Source of the DNA: Patescibacteria group bacterium
GTDB lineage: Bacteria > Patescibacteriota > Minisyncoccia > Phycocordibacterales > JACOZG01
Assembly: GCA_034658935.1 (NCBI GenBank)
Contig: JAYEGE010000010.1
Location: 3,903 to 67,902, forward strand
Length of the DNA stretch: 64,000 nucleotides
Direction: 5' to 3'
How positions within the stretch are numbered: position 1 is the first letter of the stretch; the number at the start of each line of letters is the position of its first letter. The translations under genes and the position numbers were made by a program. Of this stretch, positions 45,927 through 62,990 are shown piece after piece. The notes under the pieces were generated by a model. It ran no database searches. It was not told where the DNA came from and saw only the letters and a program-made list of their open reading frames with translations.

Positions 45927-46349
45927 TGGTGGAGATGGGCGGAATCGAACCGCCGTTCAAATAGTTGTTGTAAGAGAATCTACGTGTGTAGCTAGTTTTT
46001 TGTTTTAAGCTCAGTACCTATAAAGCCAGCAAAACAATACTGAGCCGGACCTCTAAGTTTTCGGATCCTTAGCGAGATAGACTAAGGGACCTAGCTCGCG
46101 AGAATTACACTCTAGTCCGCGGCACGAGCGCCTGACGGGTAGAATGCCTACTTAAGCCTACAACACTAAAAGTGTCGGCCGGCGCTGAAAGCGCTTAGGC
46201 TAAAGCGAAAGCAGGGGTGAAGTATGGCGAAGCCACACCTCGGTCAGATGAATTGGCATTTATCTGGTTTGCCAACAGGTTTACGAGTCTTTTGGCCTCC
46301 TCGACACGCACACTTAAAACAGGACTACCTGTCTAAGCCGATCATCCCC
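45927..46349 (-). ncRNA. ssrA: tmRNA (SsrA)
   Basis: On the minus strand the 5' end is GGGGAUGAUCGGCUUAGACAGG, a shape comparable to E. coli GGGGCUGAUUCUGGAUUCGACGGG. A PK1-like CGAGGAGGCC...CUCGUAAA is present. The candidate tag ORF is ...GCU UUC GCU UUA GCC UAA (…PAFALA*). The 3' end is GGCGGUUCGAUUCCGCCCAUCUCCACCA, which is T-arm, acceptor and CCA. It lies immediately downstream of smpB. Confidence 0.75.
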
Positions 46350-50645: not shown

Positions 50646-50718
50646 GTGCCCATAGCTCAATGGTTAGAGCGCCAAGCTTATATCTTGGTGGTTCCAGGTT
50701 CGAGTCCTGGTGGGCACA
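50646..50718 (+). tRNA. tRNA-Ile with anticodon UAU (AUA-decoding). No CCA is encoded.
   Basis: Hand-folded cloverleaf. Acceptor GTGCCCA/TGGGCAC, D-arm GCTC-AATGGTTA-GAGC, anticodon stem CCAAG/CTTGG with loop CTTATAT (U33, A37), T-arm CCAGG-TTCGAGT-CCTGG, discriminator A. Confidence 0.7.
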
Positions 50719-54038: not shown

Positions 54039-55814
54039 GTGGGGGACTATGTTAGAATGGCCATAATGATAGCTGAGGAATTGAAGGATTTAATTAAGCG
54101 GGCGCTGGAGGCGCTAGGCTTAGAGATGCCCAATGAAATACATCTTGAACATCCAGATGAACTGGTTCGGGGTGATTATGCCACTAACATGGCGATGGTT
54201 TTGGCCAAGCGAGTTGGCAAGTCCCCGCACGAATTAGCGGAGATCATAATTGCTAAATTAGAGGAATCAAAGCCGGAGACGGTCGAGAAGGTTGAAATTG
54301 CGGGCCCCGGTTTTATTAATTTTCATTTGTCGCTCAAGTTTTTGACTAACGAAGTAGAGCGGGTGCTAAAGATGGGGGATGATTATGGCCGCAATCAAAG
54401 TCGCCAGGGGCAGAAGATAATAATCGAGTTTACCGACCCCAACCCCTTTAAGGAATTCCATATTGGCCACTTGATGAGTAATGCTATTGGCGAGTCGATT
54501 TCGCGCCTCATCGCCGCCACTGGCGCTGAGCTCAAGCGGGCCTGCTACCAAGGTGATGTGGGGATGCATGTGGCCAAGACATTGCTCTCCCTAATGGAGT
54601 TGCCTGATGATGCGCTACCCGTCCAGGCGCCGCTGCAAGAGAAGGCGGCTTTCCTGGGCGACGCTTATGCTAAAGGATCGAATTTATATGAATCAGGAGA
54701 AGGGGAGAAGCAGAAAGCGGGGGATTTAAATAAGAAGATCTACGATCGCACAGACCCTAAGGTCAATAAGCTTTATGATTGGGGGAGAGAAGTAAGCTTA
54801 GAATATTTCGAAACTATTTACGGGAAACTCGGCACTAAGTTCGACCATTATTTCTTCGAGAGTGAAGCAGGGCCGTATGGCAAAGGGGTGGTAGAGGAGT
54901 GGTTAGAGAAGGGGGTTTTCGAAAAAAGCGATGGGGCGGTGGTGTATAAGGGAGACGAGGAAGAGGGCCTACATACTCGCGTTTTTATTAACTCTCAAGA
55001 CCTGCCTACTTACGAGGCCAAGGAATTGGGGCTGGCTAAAATCAAATACGATAAATATCCTTACGAGCATTCGCTGGTTATCACCGGCAACGAGATCAAT
55101 GATTATTTCCGAGTCTTATTGGCGGTGATGGGAGAGGTTTTCCCCAACTTGGCGGCCAAGACCACACATTTAGGTCACGGGATGCTTCGCTTGCCTTCTG
55201 GCAAGATGTCTTCGCGAACGGGTGATGTTATTACGGCGGAGTCATTGCTGACAGAAGTGCGATCTAAGATTGCACCTAAGATCGTCGATAGGGGATTAAC
55301 TGAAGAGGAGAAAGGAATTATCGCCGAACAGGTGGCAGTGGGGGCAATTAAGTATTCGATCTTACACCAGGCTGTTGGCGGCGACATCATTTTCGACCTA
55401 GAAAATTCGGTCTCCTTCGAAGGTGACTCTGGTCCCTATATTCAATACACCTATGCCCGGGCTAGATCTGTTCTGAGTAAAGCAAAAGGGCTTGATCCTA
55501 ACTTGGACATTGAATATCCAAGTAATGCTGGGCCACTTGGATATTCAATGTCCAAGTCCTCCGAATGCCATGTTGAGCGTCTGTTATACCGTTTCCATGA
55601 AATAGTGGCTCAAGCAGCTACCGATTACGCGCCGCATCAGCTCTGTACCTACTTGCACCAACTTGCTTCCGCCTTCAATACCTATTATGGCGAGACAAAA
55701 ATTATTGATGAAGATTCTGATTCAAGTTACCGCCTTGCCCTCACTGCCGCTACCGCTCAAGTTCTTAAGTCTGGCCTCCATCTCTTGGGTATTGCCGCGC
55801 CAGAAAAGATGTAG
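54039..55814 (+). CDS. argS: Arginine--tRNA ligase
   Basis: N-terminal Arg_tRNA_synt_N-like region, FTDPNPFKEFHIGHLMSNAIGES (HIGH), and a C-terminal DALR anticodon-binding region. Length 591 aa. Confidence 0.9.
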   Translation: MGDYVRMAIMIAEELKDLIKRALEALGLEMPNEIHLEHPDELVRGDYATNMAMVLAKRVGKSPHELAEIIIAKLEESKPETVEKVEIAGPGFINFHLSLKFLTNEVERVLKMGDDYGRNQSRQGQKIIIEFTDPNPFKEFHIGHLMSNAIGESISRLIAATGAELKRACYQGDVGMHVAKTLLSLMELPDDALPVQAPLQEKAAFLGDAYAKGSNLYESGEGEKQKAGDLNKKIYDRTDPKVNKLYDWGREVSLEYFETIYGKLGTKFDHYFFESEAGPYGKGVVEEWLEKGVFEKSDGAVVYKGDEEEGLHTRVFINSQDLPTYEAKELGLAKIKYDKYPYEHSLVITGNEINDYFRVLLAVMGEVFPNLAAKTTHLGHGMLRLPSGKMSSRTGDVITAESLLTEVRSKIAPKIVDRGLTEEEKGIIAEQVAVGAIKYSILHQAVGGDIIFDLENSVSFEGDSGPYIQYTYARARSVLSKAKGLDPNLDIEYPSNAGPLGYSMSKSSECHVERLLYRFHEIVAQAATDYAPHQLCTYLHQLASAFNTYYGETKIIDEDSDSSYRLALTAATAQVLKSGLHLLGIAAPEKM

Positions 55815-56769: not shown

Positions 56770-59700
56770 ATGGCGAAAAATGATGAAGCGGGCCGAAGCA
56801 AGTCTGAGCATGCTCAAAGAGAGGAAGAGATCCTCAAGTTTTGGCAAGAAAATGGAATTTTTGAGAAAGCTCTGGCCAAAGACTCTCCTCAGGGCGAGTT
56901 TGTTTTCTACGAGGGTCCGCCGACGGCCAATGGTCGCCCCGGGATCCATCACCTAGAGGCTCGCGCCTTCAAGGATTTAATCCCGCGTTATAAGACGATG
57001 CAGGGTTATCATGTTGCGCGTAAGGCGGGCTGGGATACCCATGGCTTGCCAGTGGAACTTGAGGTGGAAAAAGAACTCGGACTCAAATCGAAGAAGGAAA
57101 TTGAGGAGTATGGCCTAACCGCCTTCAATCAGAAATGTCGTGAGAGCGTTGGGAAGTATATGAGTGAGTGGCGCGACTTTACCGATCGGGTTGGCTTCTG
57201 GGCGGATCTCGACAACGCTTACGCTACTTACCAGGCTCCTTATATGGAGTCGCTTTGGCATATTATGAAACAAGTCGAGGAGCAGGGTCTCTTTGATAAA
57301 GATTATCGGGTGGTGCCTTGGTGTCCACGTTGTGGCACTGGTCTCTCCTCGCATGAGTTGGCGCAGGGATATAGGGACGTCAAAGACCTGTCGGTCTTTG
57401 CAAAGTTCAAAGTTCAAAGTCCAAATTTCAAAGAGGATACATATTTGTTGGCGTGGACGACTACTCCATGGACGCTACCGGGTAATGTGGCGCTAGTGGT
57501 AAGGGAAGATATAGAGTATGTGGCTGTTCACTATGATCCAGATCCCAAAATGGGCCTTTCTATTACAGAAGGTAAAAATGGCCGTCAGACAAAACGAGTA
57601 GAAATTCATTCGGGGACCTACATCTTAGCGAAAGATATCTTTTTCAAAAATATAAATTCTAATGCTGGGTTACCAGAAGTCAGAGAATTGCTTAATCTAG
57701 ACGGTGATTTATTGTTGCAAGATTTAAAGCAGTATGCGCGTGATCAAGATGGTTTTTTCGAAAAACACAAAGACAGGATCCAAGTTTTTAAGGGCAAAGA
57801 CTTAGCCGGACTTGAATATGAACCACTTTACCCGTTCATGCGGGAGGCTAAGCCGGAGAATATCGAGAATGCTTACAAGGTCTATGCAGTGGGGTCGGGT
57901 TCTGACTTCGTAAACACTGAAGATGGTACTGGTGTTGTCCATACGGCGGTAATGTATGGGCAAGAAGACTTTGAAGTTGGTAGCAAAATCAATTTACCTA
58001 AATACCACACCGTTGATGAGACGGGCCACTTCATAAAGGGCGCCGGTTTCCTCGAGGGCAAATTTGTTCGGGATGAAGAGACAGCAATAGATATCATTAA
58101 GGATCTCGCCGGCCGGGAACTCTTATTTGCCAAAGAGAAATATACCCACTCTTATCCTCATTGTTGGCGCTGTAAGACCGCTCTTATTTATTATGCTCGC
58201 GATTCCTATTATATCCGGATGTCAAAACTGCGAGATAAATTGATTGAAGAAAACAATAATATCCATTGGGAGCCGGAGCATATTCGAGATGGTCGCTTTG
58301 GTGAATGGCTACGAGAACTCAAAGATTGGGCCATCTCTCGCGAGCGTTATTGGGGTACGCCCCTACCTCTTTGGGTTGCTGAGGATGAGAGTCAGTTGAT
58401 GATCGGCTCGGTGAAAGAACTCAAGCAATATACTAAAACGTCGGGTAATAAATATTGGTTGATGCGCCACGGTGAGGCTGAGAATAATACCGGGAGAGTC
58501 TTGAGTTCCTTGCCGGATAACCCTCATCACCTAACCGAGAAGGGGAAGGGGCAGATTGCCGATGCTATTCCTCGGCTTAAGGAGGTTGGAGTCGACCTAA
58601 TTATTAGTTCCGATTTCGTGCGTACGCGGGAGACGGCGGAACTTGTCGCCAAGGGGCTCGGTCTTAACTCTGATCAGATCGTCTATGACGAGCGTTTGCG
58701 GGAAGTTAATCATGGCGACTTTAATGGGCGGCCAGTCGAGGATTATTATAGCTATTATAAAGATACGCCCGAACGTTTCTCTAAAAAATTGCCAAATGGA
58801 GAAGACTTTAATGATGTAAAGAGGAGGATGGGGGAGGCATTGTACGATATTGAAACAAAATATCGCGACAAGAAGGTCCTAATAATTAGCCATGAGAGCC
58901 CCTCTTGGCTCTTGATTGCTGCTAGTACTGGTGCTGACCTCGCCCAAACTATTGCGATGCATGATCATGAGGGCGAGACGCGCGGGGTCAATTTCATCAA
59001 TAACGCCGAGGTGCGACCGCTCAATTTTGTGCCATTGCCACATAACGCTGATTACGAACTCGACTTGCATCGCCCGCATATCGACGAGGTGGTGTTAAAG
59101 AAAGACGGCCAGGAATATAAGCGAGTGTCGGAAGTAATGGATGTGTGGTTTGACTCTGGCTCAATGCCCTTCGCGCAGCATCATTATTTGAGTGGCCAGG
59201 GCGATCTTCCTTACCCGGCGGACTTTATTTCTGAGGCGATAGACCAGACTCGGGGTTGGTTTTACACTCTACTTGCTGTCGGTGTGTTAATGGGGCGAGG
59301 GGCGCCCTACAAGAATGTTATTTGTCTCGGCCATCTCTTAGACGAGAAGGGGCAGAAGATGTCTAAGTCGATAGGGAACGTGGTTGATCCTTGGTTGATG
59401 ATGGATAAGTACGGCGCCGATGTACTCCGCTTCTGGATGTACTCAATAAGCCAACCAGGTGAACCGAAGAATTTTGATGAGAAGACGGTGCAGGAGGTGG
59501 TGAATAAGGTGGTGAATATGCTGTTGAATGTGACGAAGTTTTATCAACAGTCTGGAGGGGAGGAGTTCGCAGATCGCGTACCGTTGTGGGATATGGAATC
59601 CTGGGAGAGTGGCGAGTTGCGCTATGAAGACAAAAGGCCAATGGGGGGCGAGTATAACGATCTGGACCATTGGATTATAGAGAAATTGCATTTACTGGTT

Positions 59701-60447
59701 CGCGATGTGACGATTAATTTAGACAAATATCGTGTGCTGGAACCGGCCAGGGCAATTAGAGATTTTATCGCCGATCTATCTCAATGGTATATAAAAAATT
59801 CCAGAGATGAGTTTAAGGTTCGAGACTTCGAAAAGAAACAGCAAGTTTTGGCAACGACCAGATATGTTTTAGTCGAACTGTCTAAACTTATGGCCCCCTT
59901 TATGCCATTTCTTGCGGAATACGTGTTCCAACAAGTTGGCGATTGTGATGGTGGGAAAAGAAGTGTCCACCAAGAAGATTGGCCGCAAATTTCAAATGCA
60001 TGTGACCTAGAGGTTATTGATGAAATGAAATGTGTACGTAGTCTAATTTCTCGAGTTTTAGAACGTCGGGCTTCTGCTGGTATAAGGATTCGGCAGCCCC
60101 TACCTTCACTGAAAATCAAGGGCGATGGGTTGGCTGGGTTGAACGACAAACCTGGGTTGAAGGATCTGATAGGGCGTGCGGTGAATGTTAAAAAAATCAT
60201 TGTTGACAGCACCATCCAATCAGAAATAGAACTCGATACCAATATTACCCCTGAGCTTCAGGAAGAAGGGGATTTGCGAGATCTCATTCGTGAATTACAG
60301 GAGCAGAGGAAGAAAGGGGGGCTTAAACCTGGCGAGCCAGCTGAATTGAGTGTGTCGATTGATAGGAAAGAATTTGTTACCAAACACGAAACGGCATTGA
60401 AAGAAGCTGTCTCTGCTACTGGTTTTAATTTTACCTCGCGGTTTTAA
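56770..60447 (+). CDS. ileS: Isoleucine--tRNA ligase carrying an inserted histidine-phosphatase (PGAM-like) domain
   Basis: IleRS-specific motifs: GPPTANG...IHH, GWDTHGLPVE, PHCWRCKTALIYY, WAISRERYWGTPLP, DVWFDSGSMP and KMSKSIGN. Length is 1225 aa, against about 940-1050 typical. The insert is LMRHGEAENN...RTRETA...LIISHESPSWLL. Confidence 0.9.
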   Translation: MAKNDEAGRSKSEHAQREEEILKFWQENGIFEKALAKDSPQGEFVFYEGPPTANGRPGIHHLEARAFKDLIPRYKTMQGYHVARKAGWDTHGLPVELEVEKELGLKSKKEIEEYGLTAFNQKCRESVGKYMSEWRDFTDRVGFWADLDNAYATYQAPYMESLWHIMKQVEEQGLFDKDYRVVPWCPRCGTGLSSHELAQGYRDVKDLSVFAKFKVQSPNFKEDTYLLAWTTTPWTLPGNVALVVREDIEYVAVHYDPDPKMGLSITEGKNGRQTKRVEIHSGTYILAKDIFFKNINSNAGLPEVRELLNLDGDLLLQDLKQYARDQDGFFEKHKDRIQVFKGKDLAGLEYEPLYPFMREAKPENIENAYKVYAVGSGSDFVNTEDGTGVVHTAVMYGQEDFEVGSKINLPKYHTVDETGHFIKGAGFLEGKFVRDEETAIDIIKDLAGRELLFAKEKYTHSYPHCWRCKTALIYYARDSYYIRMSKLRDKLIEENNNIHWEPEHIRDGRFGEWLRELKDWAISRERYWGTPLPLWVAEDESQLMIGSVKELKQYTKTSGNKYWLMRHGEAENNTGRVLSSLPDNPHHLTEKGKGQIADAIPRLKEVGVDLIISSDFVRTRETAELVAKGLGLNSDQIVYDERLREVNHGDFNGRPVEDYYSYYKDTPERFSKKLPNGEDFNDVKRRMGEALYDIETKYRDKKVLIISHESPSWLLIAASTGADLAQTIAMHDHEGETRGVNFINNAEVRPLNFVPLPHNADYELDLHRPHIDEVVLKKDGQEYKRVSEVMDVWFDSGSMPFAQHHYLSGQGDLPYPADFISEAIDQTRGWFYTLLAVGVLMGRGAPYKNVICLGHLLDEKGQKMSKSIGNVVDPWLMMDKYGADVLRFWMYSISQPGEPKNFDEKTVQEVVNKVVNMLLNVTKFYQQSGGEEFADRVPLWDMESWESGELRYEDKRPMGGEYNDLDHWIIEKLHLLVRDVTINLDKYRVLEPARAIRDFIADLSQWYIKNSRDEFKVRDFEKKQQVLATTRYVLVELSKLMAPFMPFLAEYVFQQVGDCDGGKRSVHQEDWPQISNACDLEVIDEMKCVRSLISRVLERRASAGIRIRQPLPSLKIKGDGLAGLNDKPGLKDLIGRAVNVKKIIVDSTIQSEIELDTNITPELQEEGDLRDLIRELQEQRKKGGLKPGEPAELSVSIDRKEFVTKHETALKEAVSATGFNFTSRF

Positions 60448-60460
60448 GTTTTGCGCTCCC

Positions 60461-61006
60461 ATGTCGCACCATCTCCACCATACTCAAGGGATTCTGATCC
60501 ACAGTCGCTCTTATGGTGAGGCCAATAGACTTCTCTATCTGCTTACTCCCGATCTCGGCCTGGTCTTAGTGGCTGCTCAGGGTGTTCGGCAATCTTACTC
60601 CAAGCTTCGAGGGCAATTAAGTAATTACTCTCAGCTCCGCCTATCTTTAGTGCGGGGTCGCGGAGTTTGGCGCCTAACGGCCGCCGAATCCCTAAACGGT
60701 TTTCAAGTTAGCGCCCTACCATTGGAGGCAAGGCGAGTTTGGTTACGTCTTTGCGCCTTGCTCGTTCGCCTGGTCCATGGCGAGGAGGGGCATCCCGAGC
60801 TCTTCGCTTGTTTTATTAATTGGGCTGAACAATTACCGTCTCTGGAGGCTGATGCCTTAGCTCGCCGCAGTCTCTTGTGGCATCTGGAGTTACTGTATCT
60901 TCTCGGTTATATTCCCAAAGAGCAACTTGATTATGCTCGATTGAACGAAGACGAGCCACGCTTGGTGGCACTCATTAACCAGGCCCTAGAGGGGAGTCAT
61001 CTCTAG
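60461..61006 (+). CDS. recO: RecO-like DNA repair protein (short form without a zinc finger)
   Basis: GILIHSRSYGEANRLLYLLT (OB-fold N-terminus typical of RecO), a helical C-terminus, and position next to an aaRS gene as in many genomes. Moderate confidence only. Confidence 0.5.
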   Translation: MSHHLHHTQGILIHSRSYGEANRLLYLLTPDLGLVLVAAQGVRQSYSKLRGQLSNYSQLRLSLVRGRGVWRLTAAESLNGFQVSALPLEARRVWLRLCALLVRLVHGEEGHPELFACFINWAEQLPSLEADALARRSLLWHLELLYLLGYIPKEQLDYARLNEDEPRLVALINQALEGSHL

Positions 61007-61040: not shown

Positions 61041-62990
61041 ATGCCGGAACCAGAATCCAACCAAACACCTCAGCCGCTTGAGCGCCCTGACAGACTGGAA
61101 GATCTTCAGCAACGATTATATAAGCGCGATGCTGAGTCGCCTAAATTGCGCCGAACGCGTTTGTCTGAAGCTGGTCCTGGAGATCGGCAGGGTTGGCCAG
61201 ACTCAGAACCTGAGGAATCTACTCGCTCTAAAACTAAAATGCTTAAAATAATCTTTTGGGTTGCCGTTCTACTCTTCGTAATTAGTGCCGCCGCTGCTGC
61301 GTGGGTTTTTCTCCAAGATTCTAATACTGTCTCTAGTGGTAATGTTGATTTGGAAGTTGTCGGGCCTTTAACTATCCAAGCTGGGGAGATCTCTAATTTC
61401 CAGGTTGAAATTGCCAATCGCAATAATTCGCCGCTGGAGTTCGTTGATTTAATCGTTAATTATCCGTCAGGAACTCTGGCCGCCGATGAGACTGGGCGGG
61501 AATTGGGGCGAGAGCGAGAAACTTTAGGCACTATTCCTGCCGGCGAAACCGTTCGCCGTGAGCTGAGGGCGTCACTCTTTGGCGAACGTAACGGTATTTT
61601 GCCGGTTGGTGTTGGTATTGAATACAGGTTGGTTGGTTCTAACGCCATCTTTGACAAGCGAGTTACTTATGAGGTGACGGTCGGCGCCTCGCCGCTGTCG
61701 CTGACAATGGAGGCGCCTGAGGAGGTTAACACTAACCAAGAGATGGCTCTTGATGTGGAAGTCATTTCTAATTCTGAGACAGCCCTCATCGATACCTTGG
61801 TGACCCTTGAATACCCGCCCGGCTTTAGATTAACTCAAGCTGAGCCGGCTTCACTTAATCAGCATAATGTTTGGCGCTTGCCGAAGCTCGAGGCTGGTGA
61901 GACTTGGTCTCTGTATCTGATCGGGACTCTGGAGGGGCAAGATGACGAGTCCAAAACTTTCCGAGCTCGAGCTGGCATGCCCTCAGCTAATAATTCGGAG
62001 GTGGTTGGCGCACTCTATGGTACCGATGTTGCTAGTGTGGCTATTCGTCGGCCTTACGTTAGCTTGGCGGCGTCTATTAATGGCGATCCGGCGTCCGAGT
62101 ATATCGGATCGAGTAGACAGTCTTTGGGACTAGCTATTGAGTGGTTTAATAATTTGCCGGTAGCGGTAACTGATGGTGAGATTATCGTCGAGCTCGACGG
62201 CGAGACACTCGAGCGCTCAAGTGTCTCACCTGGGCTTGGCTTCTACCAATCAAGCGGTAATCGTGTTCTTTGGAATAAGAATAGCACTCCGGTCTTGAGC
62301 GAAATCGCTCCTGGCGAGAGGGGCGGAGTTAGCTTAGATTTCAATTCTGTTTCCCTGACAGCAGATGATAATTACCAATTCGATAATCCAGAAATTAATC
62401 TTCTAATTAAATTCCGTGGTCGTCGAGCTACTGAGTCAGAGATAGGCGATCAGATTGAGACCGAGGTGCGTCGCCTGGTCAAGTTAAATACCGTTCTGCA
62501 ATCAGCCGCCAAGGTGCTGTATAATAGTGGTCCATTCACTAACTCTGGCCCTTTGCCGCCCAAGATTGGCCAAGAGACCACTTACACAGTGGTTTGGACG
62601 GCAGTTAATTCCACTAATGATCTGGCGGGGGCAAAGATGGAGGCGGTTCTACCACCTTACGTTCGTTGGTTGGGAGAGGTCTCGCCAGGGACTGAGGATG
62701 TCGATTTTCTAGCAAACGCCTCCGGCGGCGGCGCCATTACTTGGGAATTAGGTGAAATCAAGGCGGGCACTGGTTATAATCTGGCGGCTCGCGAGGTGGC
62801 CTTCAGGATTGCTCTTGATCCCAGCCTTAATCATGTGGGCTCGGCGCCCAATCTCCTGTCACGTCCTAGTATAACCGCCAGGGATGTCTTCACTGGGCGG
62901 ACGATTAATGATAGGGTTAGTCGCGATCTCGATACTAATCTAAACAAAGACCCTCAATTTAGTTTTGGGCAAGACAAGGTTGTTCAATAA
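61041..62990 (+). CDS. Membrane-anchored large extracytoplasmic protein with repeated beta-sandwich (CARDB/DUF11-like) modules
   Basis: About 70 aa of charged N-terminus, a TM helix IIFWVAVLLFVISAAAAAWVF, then repeated about 100-aa segments (LEVVGPLTIQAGE..., LTMEAPEEVNTNQE..., VEIANRNNSPLEF...). Confidence 0.5.
   Translation: MPEPESNQTPQPLERPDRLEDLQQRLYKRDAESPKLRRTRLSEAGPGDRQGWPDSEPEESTRSKTKMLKIIFWVAVLLFVISAAAAAWVFLQDSNTVSSGNVDLEVVGPLTIQAGEISNFQVEIANRNNSPLEFVDLIVNYPSGTLAADETGRELGRERETLGTIPAGETVRRELRASLFGERNGILPVGVGIEYRLVGSNAIFDKRVTYEVTVGASPLSLTMEAPEEVNTNQEMALDVEVISNSETALIDTLVTLEYPPGFRLTQAEPASLNQHNVWRLPKLEAGETWSLYLIGTLEGQDDESKTFRARAGMPSANNSEVVGALYGTDVASVAIRRPYVSLAASINGDPASEYIGSSRQSLGLAIEWFNNLPVAVTDGEIIVELDGETLERSSVSPGLGFYQSSGNRVLWNKNSTPVLSEIAPGERGGVSLDFNSVSLTADDNYQFDNPEINLLIKFRGRRATESEIGDQIETEVRRLVKLNTVLQSAAKVLYNSGPFTNSGPLPPKIGQETTYTVVWTAVNSTNDLAGAKMEAVLPPYVRWLGEVSPGTEDVDFLANASGGGAITWELGEIKAGTGYNLAAREVAFRIALDPSLNHVGSAPNLLSRPSITARDVFTGRTINDRVSRDLDTNLNKDPQFSFGQDKVVQ

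Follow-up and report, generated by a model that had tools for sequence, protein, structure and literature searches.

What is a phosphatase doing in the middle of an isoleucyl-tRNA synthetase (IleRS)? The question is raised by the ileS gene of an uncultivated, ultra-small Patescibacteria group bacterium (assembly GCA_034658935.1, contig JAYEGE010000010.1), found in a stretch of 64,000 nucleotides that was analysed as a whole and is called the window here. The gene occupies 56770-60447 of the forward strand as a single uninterrupted open reading frame (ORF) of 1225 amino acids (aa), in which the IleRS motifs WAISRERYWGTPLP and DVWFDSGSMP stand 257 aa apart. A preliminary description, made from the sequence alone, placed between them a complete branch-1 histidine phosphatase with intact motifs, within an otherwise complete IleRS. 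Pfam and TIGR00392 matches, structure alignment and an AlphaFold2 (AF2) model bear this out, and on reading the DNA every motif that had been quoted was found in frame and in place. The parts of the gene are listed by window coordinates (or aa positions), strand and basis.

56770-60447, +, ileS, type-2 isoleucyl-tRNA synthetase, 1225 aa (ORF, TIGR00392, Pfam, AF2, Foldseek)
aa 57-61, +, PGIHH (motif in frame)
56941-56952, +, GIHH, aa 58-61, GXHH variant of the class I HIGH motif (motif position; conserved in the clade)
57529-57783, +, further lineage-specific segment, aa 254-338, within the CP1/editing region and separate from the phosphatase (alignment, model confidence)
58327-58368, +, WAISRERYWGTPLP, aa 520-533, IleRS motif upstream of the insert (motif, alignment, DNA read)
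58432-59040, +, branch-1 histidine phosphatase domain nested in IleRS, aa 555-757, joined by a short linker at each end (alignment to 8c8w and 1ile)
58459-58488, +, LMRHGEAENN, aa 564-573 (motif in frame, DNA read)
58465-58473, +, R566-H567-G568, the RHG motif, H567 being the predicted phospho-accepting nucleophile (DNA cgc cac ggt; conservation)
58621-58623, +, R618, second phosphate-binding arginine, in RTRETA, aa 618-623 (conserved in 114/114)
58702-58704, +, E645, predicted proton donor, in LREVNHG (conservation; alignment to PhoE 1ebb)
aa 704-715, +, LIISHESPSWLL, with the second catalytic histidine region (motif in frame)
58891-58893, +, H708, second catalytic histidine, in IISHE (conserved in 114/114)
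59140-59169, +, DVWFDSGSMP, aa 791-800, IleRS motif opening the second half of the Rossmann fold (motif, alignment)
59356-59370, +, KMSKS loop motif, aa 863-867 (motif; conserved in relatives)
59665-60102, +, anticodon-binding domain, aa 966-1111, followed by the type-2 C-terminal domain, DUF5915 (Pfam)

An assembly artefact or frameshift is next to inconceivable as the source of this arrangement. The identical 1225-aa protein is recorded at NCBI as MEA1929868.1 (a Patescibacteria metagenome-assembled genome, 112-kb contig) and is encoded again on an independently assembled Logan contig (SRR26901924). These two independent assemblies exclude the chimeric join or frameshift that the preliminary description had named as a way for its claim to fail, as do the continuous ORF and hundreds of diverged relatives with the same junctions. 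GC content is flat across the insert (0.48-0.50), with no break in composition. The insertion is in frame and intragenic, as had been claimed, since the ORF is continuous and the Pfam family tRNA-synt_1 matches on both of its flanks.

The insert is also shared by relatives, a point that the preliminary description had set as a check. The histidine phosphatase family His_Phos_1 (PF00300) was present in all 120 homologues among the matches listed, which are about 50% identical and carry names from Vogel-, Taylor- and Zambryskibacteria, Paceibacterota and Parcubacteria. Among GTDB species representatives at least 581 matches were confirmed, and the best 80 of these all span the whole insert together with its flanks. 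The nested insert is the rule across the clade and no rarity.

Taken as a whole, the predicted gene product is a complete type-2 IleRS (IleRS2). It matches the ileS equivalog TIGR00392 at 830.4 bits over the whole protein (cut-off 621.4), and Pfam finds tRNA-synt_1 flanking the insert, split in two (E=2e-118), plus Anticodon_1 and DUF5915. In phmmer searches the type-2 structures of Priestia (P.) megaterium IleRS2 and Thermus (T.) thermophilus IleRS were matched at E=3e-211 and 3e-210. Foldseek with the AF2 model gave the P. megaterium structures 8c9d and 8c8w and the T. thermophilus structure 1ile as best matches (template modelling score normalised to target, 0.79-0.91), and in both sequence and fold matches 8c8w, 8c9d and 1ile outrank the type-1 enzymes 8c9e and 1ffy. 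The protein has the GXHH and KMSKS motifs and the type-2 architecture with the editing domain of connective peptide 1 (CP1) and the anticodon-binding domain, where type-2 architecture is taken to include a C-terminal domain lacking the type-1 zinc-binding domain.

The preliminary description had also called the HIGH motif atypical. The PGIHH that it quoted is present, but GIHH is the published GXHH variant, a swap of HIGH that is described for IleRS2 only and confers mupirocin hyper-resistance (PMC10485003); the motif is thereby already explained and was rejected as a novelty. Both GIHH and KMSKS are conserved among relatives in the nested clade. The window protein falls far short of the acquired mupirocin-resistance enzymes MupB (719 bits) and MupA (672 bits), each with a cut-off of 1900, and it resembles them only because it is a type-2 IleRS. 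It was likewise rejected as an IleRS with an acetyltransferase (GNAT) domain (NF040702, ileS_w_GNAT; 307.5 bits versus 1999), and no acetyltransferase family appeared in the Pfam scan.

A separate segment of about 85 aa (aa 254-338) has no counterpart in 8c8w or 1ile and is modelled at a predicted local distance difference test (pLDDT) score of 44-58. Only two of 113 relatives have enough aligned residues there. The segment is lineage-specific and possibly disordered.

The window IleRS aligns to the solved type-2 enzymes in three blocks, and this alignment sets the limits of the insert. Query residues 555-757 stand opposite only 2 residues of P. megaterium IleRS2 (8c8w, 477 to 480), and residues 554-763 opposite about 9 residues of T. 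thermophilus IleRS (1ile, 478 to 488). Since residues 555-757 face 2-9 residues in the solved type-2 enzymes, the insert is put at about 203 aa (nt 58432-59040). The loop that receives it, between WxISRxRxWG and DVWFDSG, is the last connective-peptide (CP) element before the second Rossmann half, an assignment made from sequence order rather than from coordinates, with the names CP core, CP1, CP2 and CP3 used as in PMC11685878. As far as the alignments tell, the insertion site lies at the tip of a zinc-knuckle element, small and often of Cys4 type, in a surface loop of the CP region. The earlier wording, that the domain lies in the catalytic core, thus stands in that the synthetase is interrupted, but the interruption is in a surface loop that belongs to the CP region and immediately precedes the second Rossmann half.

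The small zinc knuckle is recognised from CxxC and CxC pairs that flank the insert in many relatives. The flanking cysteines (window 58369-58431 and 59041-59139) are kept as 2+2 in 33 of 55 scorable nested relatives, while all four are lost in 20 of the 55, with the window protein among these. The phosphatase domain may replace the structural role of the lost metal site.

That the insert is a histidine phosphatase was to be checked with Pfam, and His_Phos_1 matched at 122.1 bits, where 21.7 is the cut-off (E=3.1e-35; aa 563-731, profile positions 2-170 of 194). The suggested check for an independently folded domain came out in the same direction. An AF2 model of aa 15-1214, built from 114 aligned sequences, has a pLDDT of 87.9 and a predicted template modelling score (pTM) of 0.83; in it the insert and both junctions reach pLDDT 96-97, and the linkers are short and above 90. 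The excised phosphatase domain modelled alone reaches 93.8. The nested domain of about 203 aa is accordingly modelled as an independently folding branch-1 histidine phosphatase, and profile score, catalytic core residues and alpha/beta fold all place it in the branch-1 superfamily.

Its closest solved relative by sequence is PhoE (E=4e-12), with E645 aligned to the LREIHLG segment of 1ebb. The nearest structures are all small-molecule phosphatases: PspA, PhoE, the glucosyl-3-phosphoglycerate phosphatase GpgP, a riboflavin-pathway phosphatase and CobC. None of the curated NCBIfam identities that were tried was accepted. The insert scored below cut-off as a phosphoglycerate mutase (NF038349 dPGM_arch, 81.4 versus 225; NF002901 GpmB, 62.6 versus 261), as CobC (TIGR03162, 77.4 versus 162.9), as PspA (NF045917, 58 versus 350) and as SixA (TIGR00249, 32.1 versus 74.5). 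Because every equivalog cut-off was missed, the insert is classed by profile as a distinct subfamily of branch-1 histidine phosphatases, in no characterised family.

Two other kinds of insert were tried and rejected. A whole-protein Pfam scan (E<=0.01) returned synthetase families, His_Phos_1 and DUF5915 only, with no Hint or endonuclease family to indicate an intein or other self-splicing element, and the phosphatase fold fills the whole insert. PADLOC gave no match to a defence system for the insert, for a stand-alone relative (P0226) or for the full protein.

Conservation was counted in an alignment of 114 nested IleRS (A1). R566, H567, N573, R618, E678 and H708 are present in 114/114; position 568 is G in 111/114, and position 645 is E in 113 and D in one. 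Mean identity of the nested relatives to the query is 44% in the insert versus 61% in the rest of the protein. Selection has therefore kept the catalytic residues, which are invariant in an insert that averages just 44% identity. The preliminary description had allowed that relatives might show an ordinary CP insertion without catalytic residues; the counts for R566, H567, R618 and H708 dispose of that.

The genomic setting of the nested gene is as regular as its sequence. Of the 80 genome loci, most have recO downstream of ileS and about three quarters have argS upstream of it, and the block reads tmk-argS-ileS[phosphatase]-recO-(649-aa protein). The corresponding genes of the window are the following.

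54039-55814, +, argS, upstream member of the block tmk-argS-(hisPhos)-ileS-recO (ORF, synteny)
60461-61006, +, recO, downstream member of the block (RecO_N match, synteny)
61041-62990, +, protein of 649 aa that has a hydrophobic N-terminal segment and only a weak Pfam match, CLIPPER (ORF)

No second phosphatase copy was found in the flanks of the 80 nested genome loci, and no other copy within the 64-kb window. The 649-aa protein follows recO in most of the 80 genome loci and also in many of those from metagenomes, and counts as a conserved member of the block. Many GTDB records with a Paceibacteria-type nested IleRS and this synteny are titled "uncultured Candidatus Saccharibacteria bacterium" (e.g. 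L001, L004, L008 and L009), labels that are probably imprecise.

Searching with the insert also returned stand-alone proteins, about 190-200 aa long, which match it from end to end at 37-47% identity. At locus L093 the order is argS - hisPhos (195 aa, 42% identical) - ileS (955 aa, insert-free) - recO, and on another contig the last 4 nt of argS are shared with the stand-alone phosphatase gene. A metagenome scan with the stand-alone family gave 80 loci, of which 70 could be classified and 10 were too short. The stand-alone gene lies no more than 400 nt upstream of an insert-free ileS in 51 of the 70, as a single copy in 44 and as two tandem copies in seven (L114, L143, L144, L155, L159, L161 and L165); three of the 70 have the nested form. 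The block tmk-argS-(hisPhos)-ileS-recO recurs in these metagenome loci. The distance from the stop of the stand-alone gene to the start of ileS is often -4 or -8 nt, an overlap of 4-8 nt. The adjoining IleRS have the HYGH form of the HIGH motif in 12 cases and GIHH in seven.

No examined locus combines the nested with the stand-alone form. This is most simply read as the transfer, in the clade of the window, of an ancient operon partner into ileS. The claim that the phosphatase is not a neighbouring gene thus holds for the window genome but not for those related Patescibacteria that have it as a separate gene just upstream of ileS. The remaining 16 of the 70 loci have no ileS downstream, and their neighbours share no common theme (serpin, radical-SAM protein, HI0933-like flavoprotein, BipA, pyruvate:ferredoxin oxidoreductase, helicase). 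Two distant stand-alone homologues (P0020 and P0021, about 35% identical) are archaeal genes beside PCNA, TFIIS and an RNA polymerase subunit, a setting that is uninformative here.

The phosphatase is joined to other proteins as well. An arginyl-tRNA synthetase (ArgRS) with a C-terminal His_Phos_1 domain (P0276, L082 10001-12070) lies directly upstream of recO, in a synteny like that of the window. A Sua5/YrdC (TsaC) protein likewise ends in a His_Phos_1 domain (P0012, L081 977-2140); longer Sua5 proteins carry the SUA5 domain at this C-terminal position. Two IleRS of the HYGH type (P0265 and P0275) have two to three His_Phos_1 domains, after DCWFESGSMP and inside the anticodon-binding domain. 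P0275 belongs to a six-member cluster with contigs as long as 1.06 Mb (L083/L084 10001-14260), whose organism encodes pyruvate:ferredoxin oxidoreductase, DAHP synthase, PurA and SLH-domain proteins and is probably not a typical bacterium of the candidate phyla radiation (CPR).

Valyl-tRNA synthetase (ValRS) provides the largest set. One ValRS (P0167) has four phosphatase copies, and its 119 nearest relatives were surveyed (among them P0310-P0427; lengths 965-1626 aa). Seventy of the 119 carry one to three nested His_Phos_1 copies, 83 copies in all, and those with names are Gracilibacteria or Peregrinibacteria. Most copies (73/83) lie between WCISRQxWWGH and DTWFSS, in the loop homologous to the insertion site of the window, and 8/83 lie before WCISRQ. 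Of the four catalytic positions, R, H, R and H persist in 80, 81, 80 and 73 of the 83 copies, respectively, and the stand-alone and ArgRS-fused copies have them too. The tandem pairs of stand-alone genes mirror the tandem nested copies in ValRS.

A neighbour-joining tree of these domains, crude and without support values, unites the nested, stand-alone, ArgRS-fused and Sua5-fused copies in one family, with the ValRS and HYGH-type IleRS copies further out. The position of these last outside the main family suggests several independent captures. The nested domains of L142, L154 and L164 group within the stand-alone clade of the same crude tree, and may, tentatively, represent a second, independent nesting at the same site.

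What the module does can be proposed with less assurance than what it is. Our preferred reading, held tentatively and at somewhat under an even chance, is that it is an active phosphomonoesterase of PhoE/PspA/CobC-like type, a conserved partner of class Ia synthetases acting on a small diffusible substrate from aminoacylation. That its function is coupled to the synthetase reaction in some way is the broader claim and a probable one, mere coincidence lying on the unlikely side. Coupling is favoured because a similar domain has been attached repeatedly to IleRS, ValRS, ArgRS and Sua5, because the partner gene is translationally coupled to ileS, and because a homologous loop has been reused in two paralogous synthetases. 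By the phospho-histidine mechanism established for the histidine phosphatase superfamily, H567 would be the nucleophile, the phosphoryl group would be bound by R566, R618 and H708, and E645 would serve as proton donor. The module would form an autonomous second active site, in 1:1 stoichiometry and at a fixed position on the synthetase, with a function tied to adenylate-forming aminoacylation; it would be no proofreading site for amino acids. It would remove a terminal phosphate from a small diffusible by-product or inhibitor, of pyrophosphate (PPi) or nucleotide type, of the reaction ATP -> aminoacyl-AMP + PPi. The four partners IleRS, ValRS, ArgRS and Sua5/TsaC have in common the chemistry ATP -> acyl-AMP + PPi. 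A small diffusible substrate is favoured because copy number (1-4) and position vary and because the nearest structures are small-molecule phosphatases.

Several points weigh against this proposal. The substrate is not readable from the sequence. The stand-alone gene is not next to any aminoacyl-tRNA synthetase in the 16 of 70 classifiable loci mentioned above; the block also holds the unrelated tmk and recO, and in compact genomes adjacency or overlap is weak evidence for coupling. A copy number of one to four and a position that ranges over several loops and the C-terminus fit hitch-hiking as well as they fit a diffusible substrate. We know of no documented case of PPi as a substrate of PhoE-like enzymes, and a literature search on pyrophosphatase in CPR genomes gave nothing usable.

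The domain could be a housekeeping enzyme (a gpmB/PhoE-type phosphatase, a phosphoserine phosphatase or a phosphoglycerate mutase) with no mechanistic tie to aminoacylation, which by chance neighboured ileS and argS in the conserved block of a streamlined genome and was fused or nested by neutral rearrangement, gaining only assured co-expression. We consider this unlikely, with several arguments in its favour: the block tmk-argS-hisPhos-ileS-recO mixes unrelated functions, adjacency makes the C-terminal fusion to ArgRS trivial through loss of a stop codon, the 16 of 70 stand-alone loci lie elsewhere in the genome, copy number and position are variable, relatives are annotated at source as COG0406/K15634 gpmB, PhoE or alpha-ribazole phosphatase, and metabolic phosphatases are the closest structures. 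What such a history does not lead one to expect is an association that recurs with three class Ia synthetases and Sua5, across phosphatase sub-lineages and bacterial classes, and that reuses the same homologous loop in IleRS and ValRS. Internal insertion into an essential enzyme is also far less likely to arise neutrally than end-to-end fusion, and every curated equivalog model failed (dPGM_arch, GpmB, CobC, PspA and SixA). A domain reduced to a catalytically dead structural or tRNA-binding appendage could stabilise the zinc-knuckle element in those 20 of 55 scorable relatives, the window protein included, that have lost its cysteines; this is very unlikely, because the catalytic residues are invariant in 114 relatives despite drift of the domain to 44% identity, and they are kept in the stand-alone, ArgRS-fused and ValRS-nested copies too.

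A macromolecular substrate is the other direction in which coupling could be sought. The domain might be a repair or antidote module that takes a 2′/3′-phosphate or pyrophosphate off damaged or toxin-modified tRNA CCA ends before charging, or an inhibitory toxin-kinase phosphate off the synthetase, as a third catalytic site with a logic like that of CP1 editing. The homologous insertion site in IleRS and ValRS (73 of 83 ValRS copies) suits this, as do the short, conserved and confidently modelled linkers, which suggest a fixed place beside the catalytic cleft, and the CP region is already home to the tRNA-end-directed editing domain (PMC11685878). We nevertheless think it rather improbable, given that the C-terminal fusion to ArgRS is at the anticodon-binding end, that the fusion partner Sua5 does not handle the tRNA 3′ end, and that the insertion of P0275 in the anticodon-binding domain and tandem arrays of two to four copies misfit one geometry. 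General repair of tRNA ends would be needed for every tRNA, beyond those for Ile, Val and Arg; the structures most like the domain belong to small-molecule enzymes; and no PADLOC defence model matched. The fullest version of this idea is a substrate-channelled third active site of CPR class Ia synthetases, one that checks the synthetase itself or the 3′ end of the tRNA and strips off a phosphate or pyrophosphate with which nucleases or toxins have blocked it, acquired independently at the homologous loop by IleRS of Paceibacteria/Minisyncoccia and by ValRS of Gracilibacteria/Peregrinibacteria; we give it a lower chance still.

Two RNA genes of the window complete the map.

50646-50718, +, tRNA-Ile gene, anticodon TAT, i.e. 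UAU (ARAGORN; Rfam tRNA, 73.7 bits)
45927-46349, -, tmRNA gene, tag peptide ANSSDRGVASPYFTPAFALA (Rfam RF00023, 140 bits)

AUA is read in most bacteria by a lysidine-modified CAU tRNA, which makes a tRNA-Ile with UAU uncommon. The gene may bear on how the window IleRS recognises the anticodon.

Set beside the solved enzymes, P. megaterium IleRS2 (8c8u-8c9d) and T. thermophilus IleRS (1ile), the window protein shares all IleRS parts, a GXHH match, KMSKS, the editing-domain motifs and the type-2 C-terminus. It differs in having a phosphatase of 203 aa where those have 2-9 residues, in the loss of the flanking zinc-knuckle cysteines and in the gain of the extra CP1 segment of about 85 aa. The insert has the same catalytic residues as PspA (4ij5), PhoE (1h2e/1ebb), glucosyl-3-phosphoglycerate phosphatase (6s2q), the riboflavin-pathway phosphatase (9mmh) and CobC (6e4b) and a similar length including the cap region, whereas it is only 22-28% identical to them and is nested in, or operon-coupled to, a synthetase.

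To our knowledge, the CP1 editing domain is the only catalytic module known to be nested in a class Ia core. It offers the precedent for a nested active site, being likewise a catalytic domain within the CP region that interrupts the Rossmann fold (PMC11685878). The folds are unrelated, and where CP1 hydrolyses the ester of mis-charged tRNA, the insert would transfer a phosphoryl group through a phospho-histidine; CP1 is universal, whereas the phosphatase domain is lineage-restricted. IleRS with GNAT (NF040702, a curated exception family) is likewise an IleRS with an extra enzyme domain, but the added domain differs. Branch-1 histidine phosphatases are joined to nucleic-acid or nucleotide enzymes, or to tRNA-gene transcription machinery, in the RNase H/acid phosphatase (NF005567, Rv2228c type), the MutT1 Nudix-phosphatase (9cxx, 3fjy) and TFIIIC tau55 (2yn0, 6yj6).

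The preliminary description knew of no IleRS with a phosphatase module, and no publication describing one was found in the literature searched. Nor did we find a paper describing a histidine phosphatase in any aminoacyl-tRNA synthetase in the full-text literature searched, whose coverage is limited. In public records the nested IleRS go under unspecific titles, for instance "class I tRNA ligase family protein". That a synthetase can bear an extra catalytic domain is a known concept, through CP1 and GNAT; the nesting of a phosphatase and its partner gene upstream are new here.

The locus presents a second, unrelated catalytic domain nested in the CP region of a class Ia synthetase, in the essential IleRS of a large uncultivated clade and, independently, in the ValRS of further CPR classes; all these organisms were already recognised as having an unusual translation machinery. 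When metabolism is reconstructed from CPR genomes, a "phosphoglycerate mutase/gpmB" may be counted where the domain is internal to a synthetase. The zinc-knuckle loop is a permissive site for engineered domain insertions into class Ia synthetases. The operon partnership, together with the ArgRS and Sua5 fusions, amounts to a "Rosetta stone" signal for an unrecognised link between phosphatase and aminoacylation, and the window IleRS, a defined and expressible protein with a one-residue control (H567A), would be a means of finding it.

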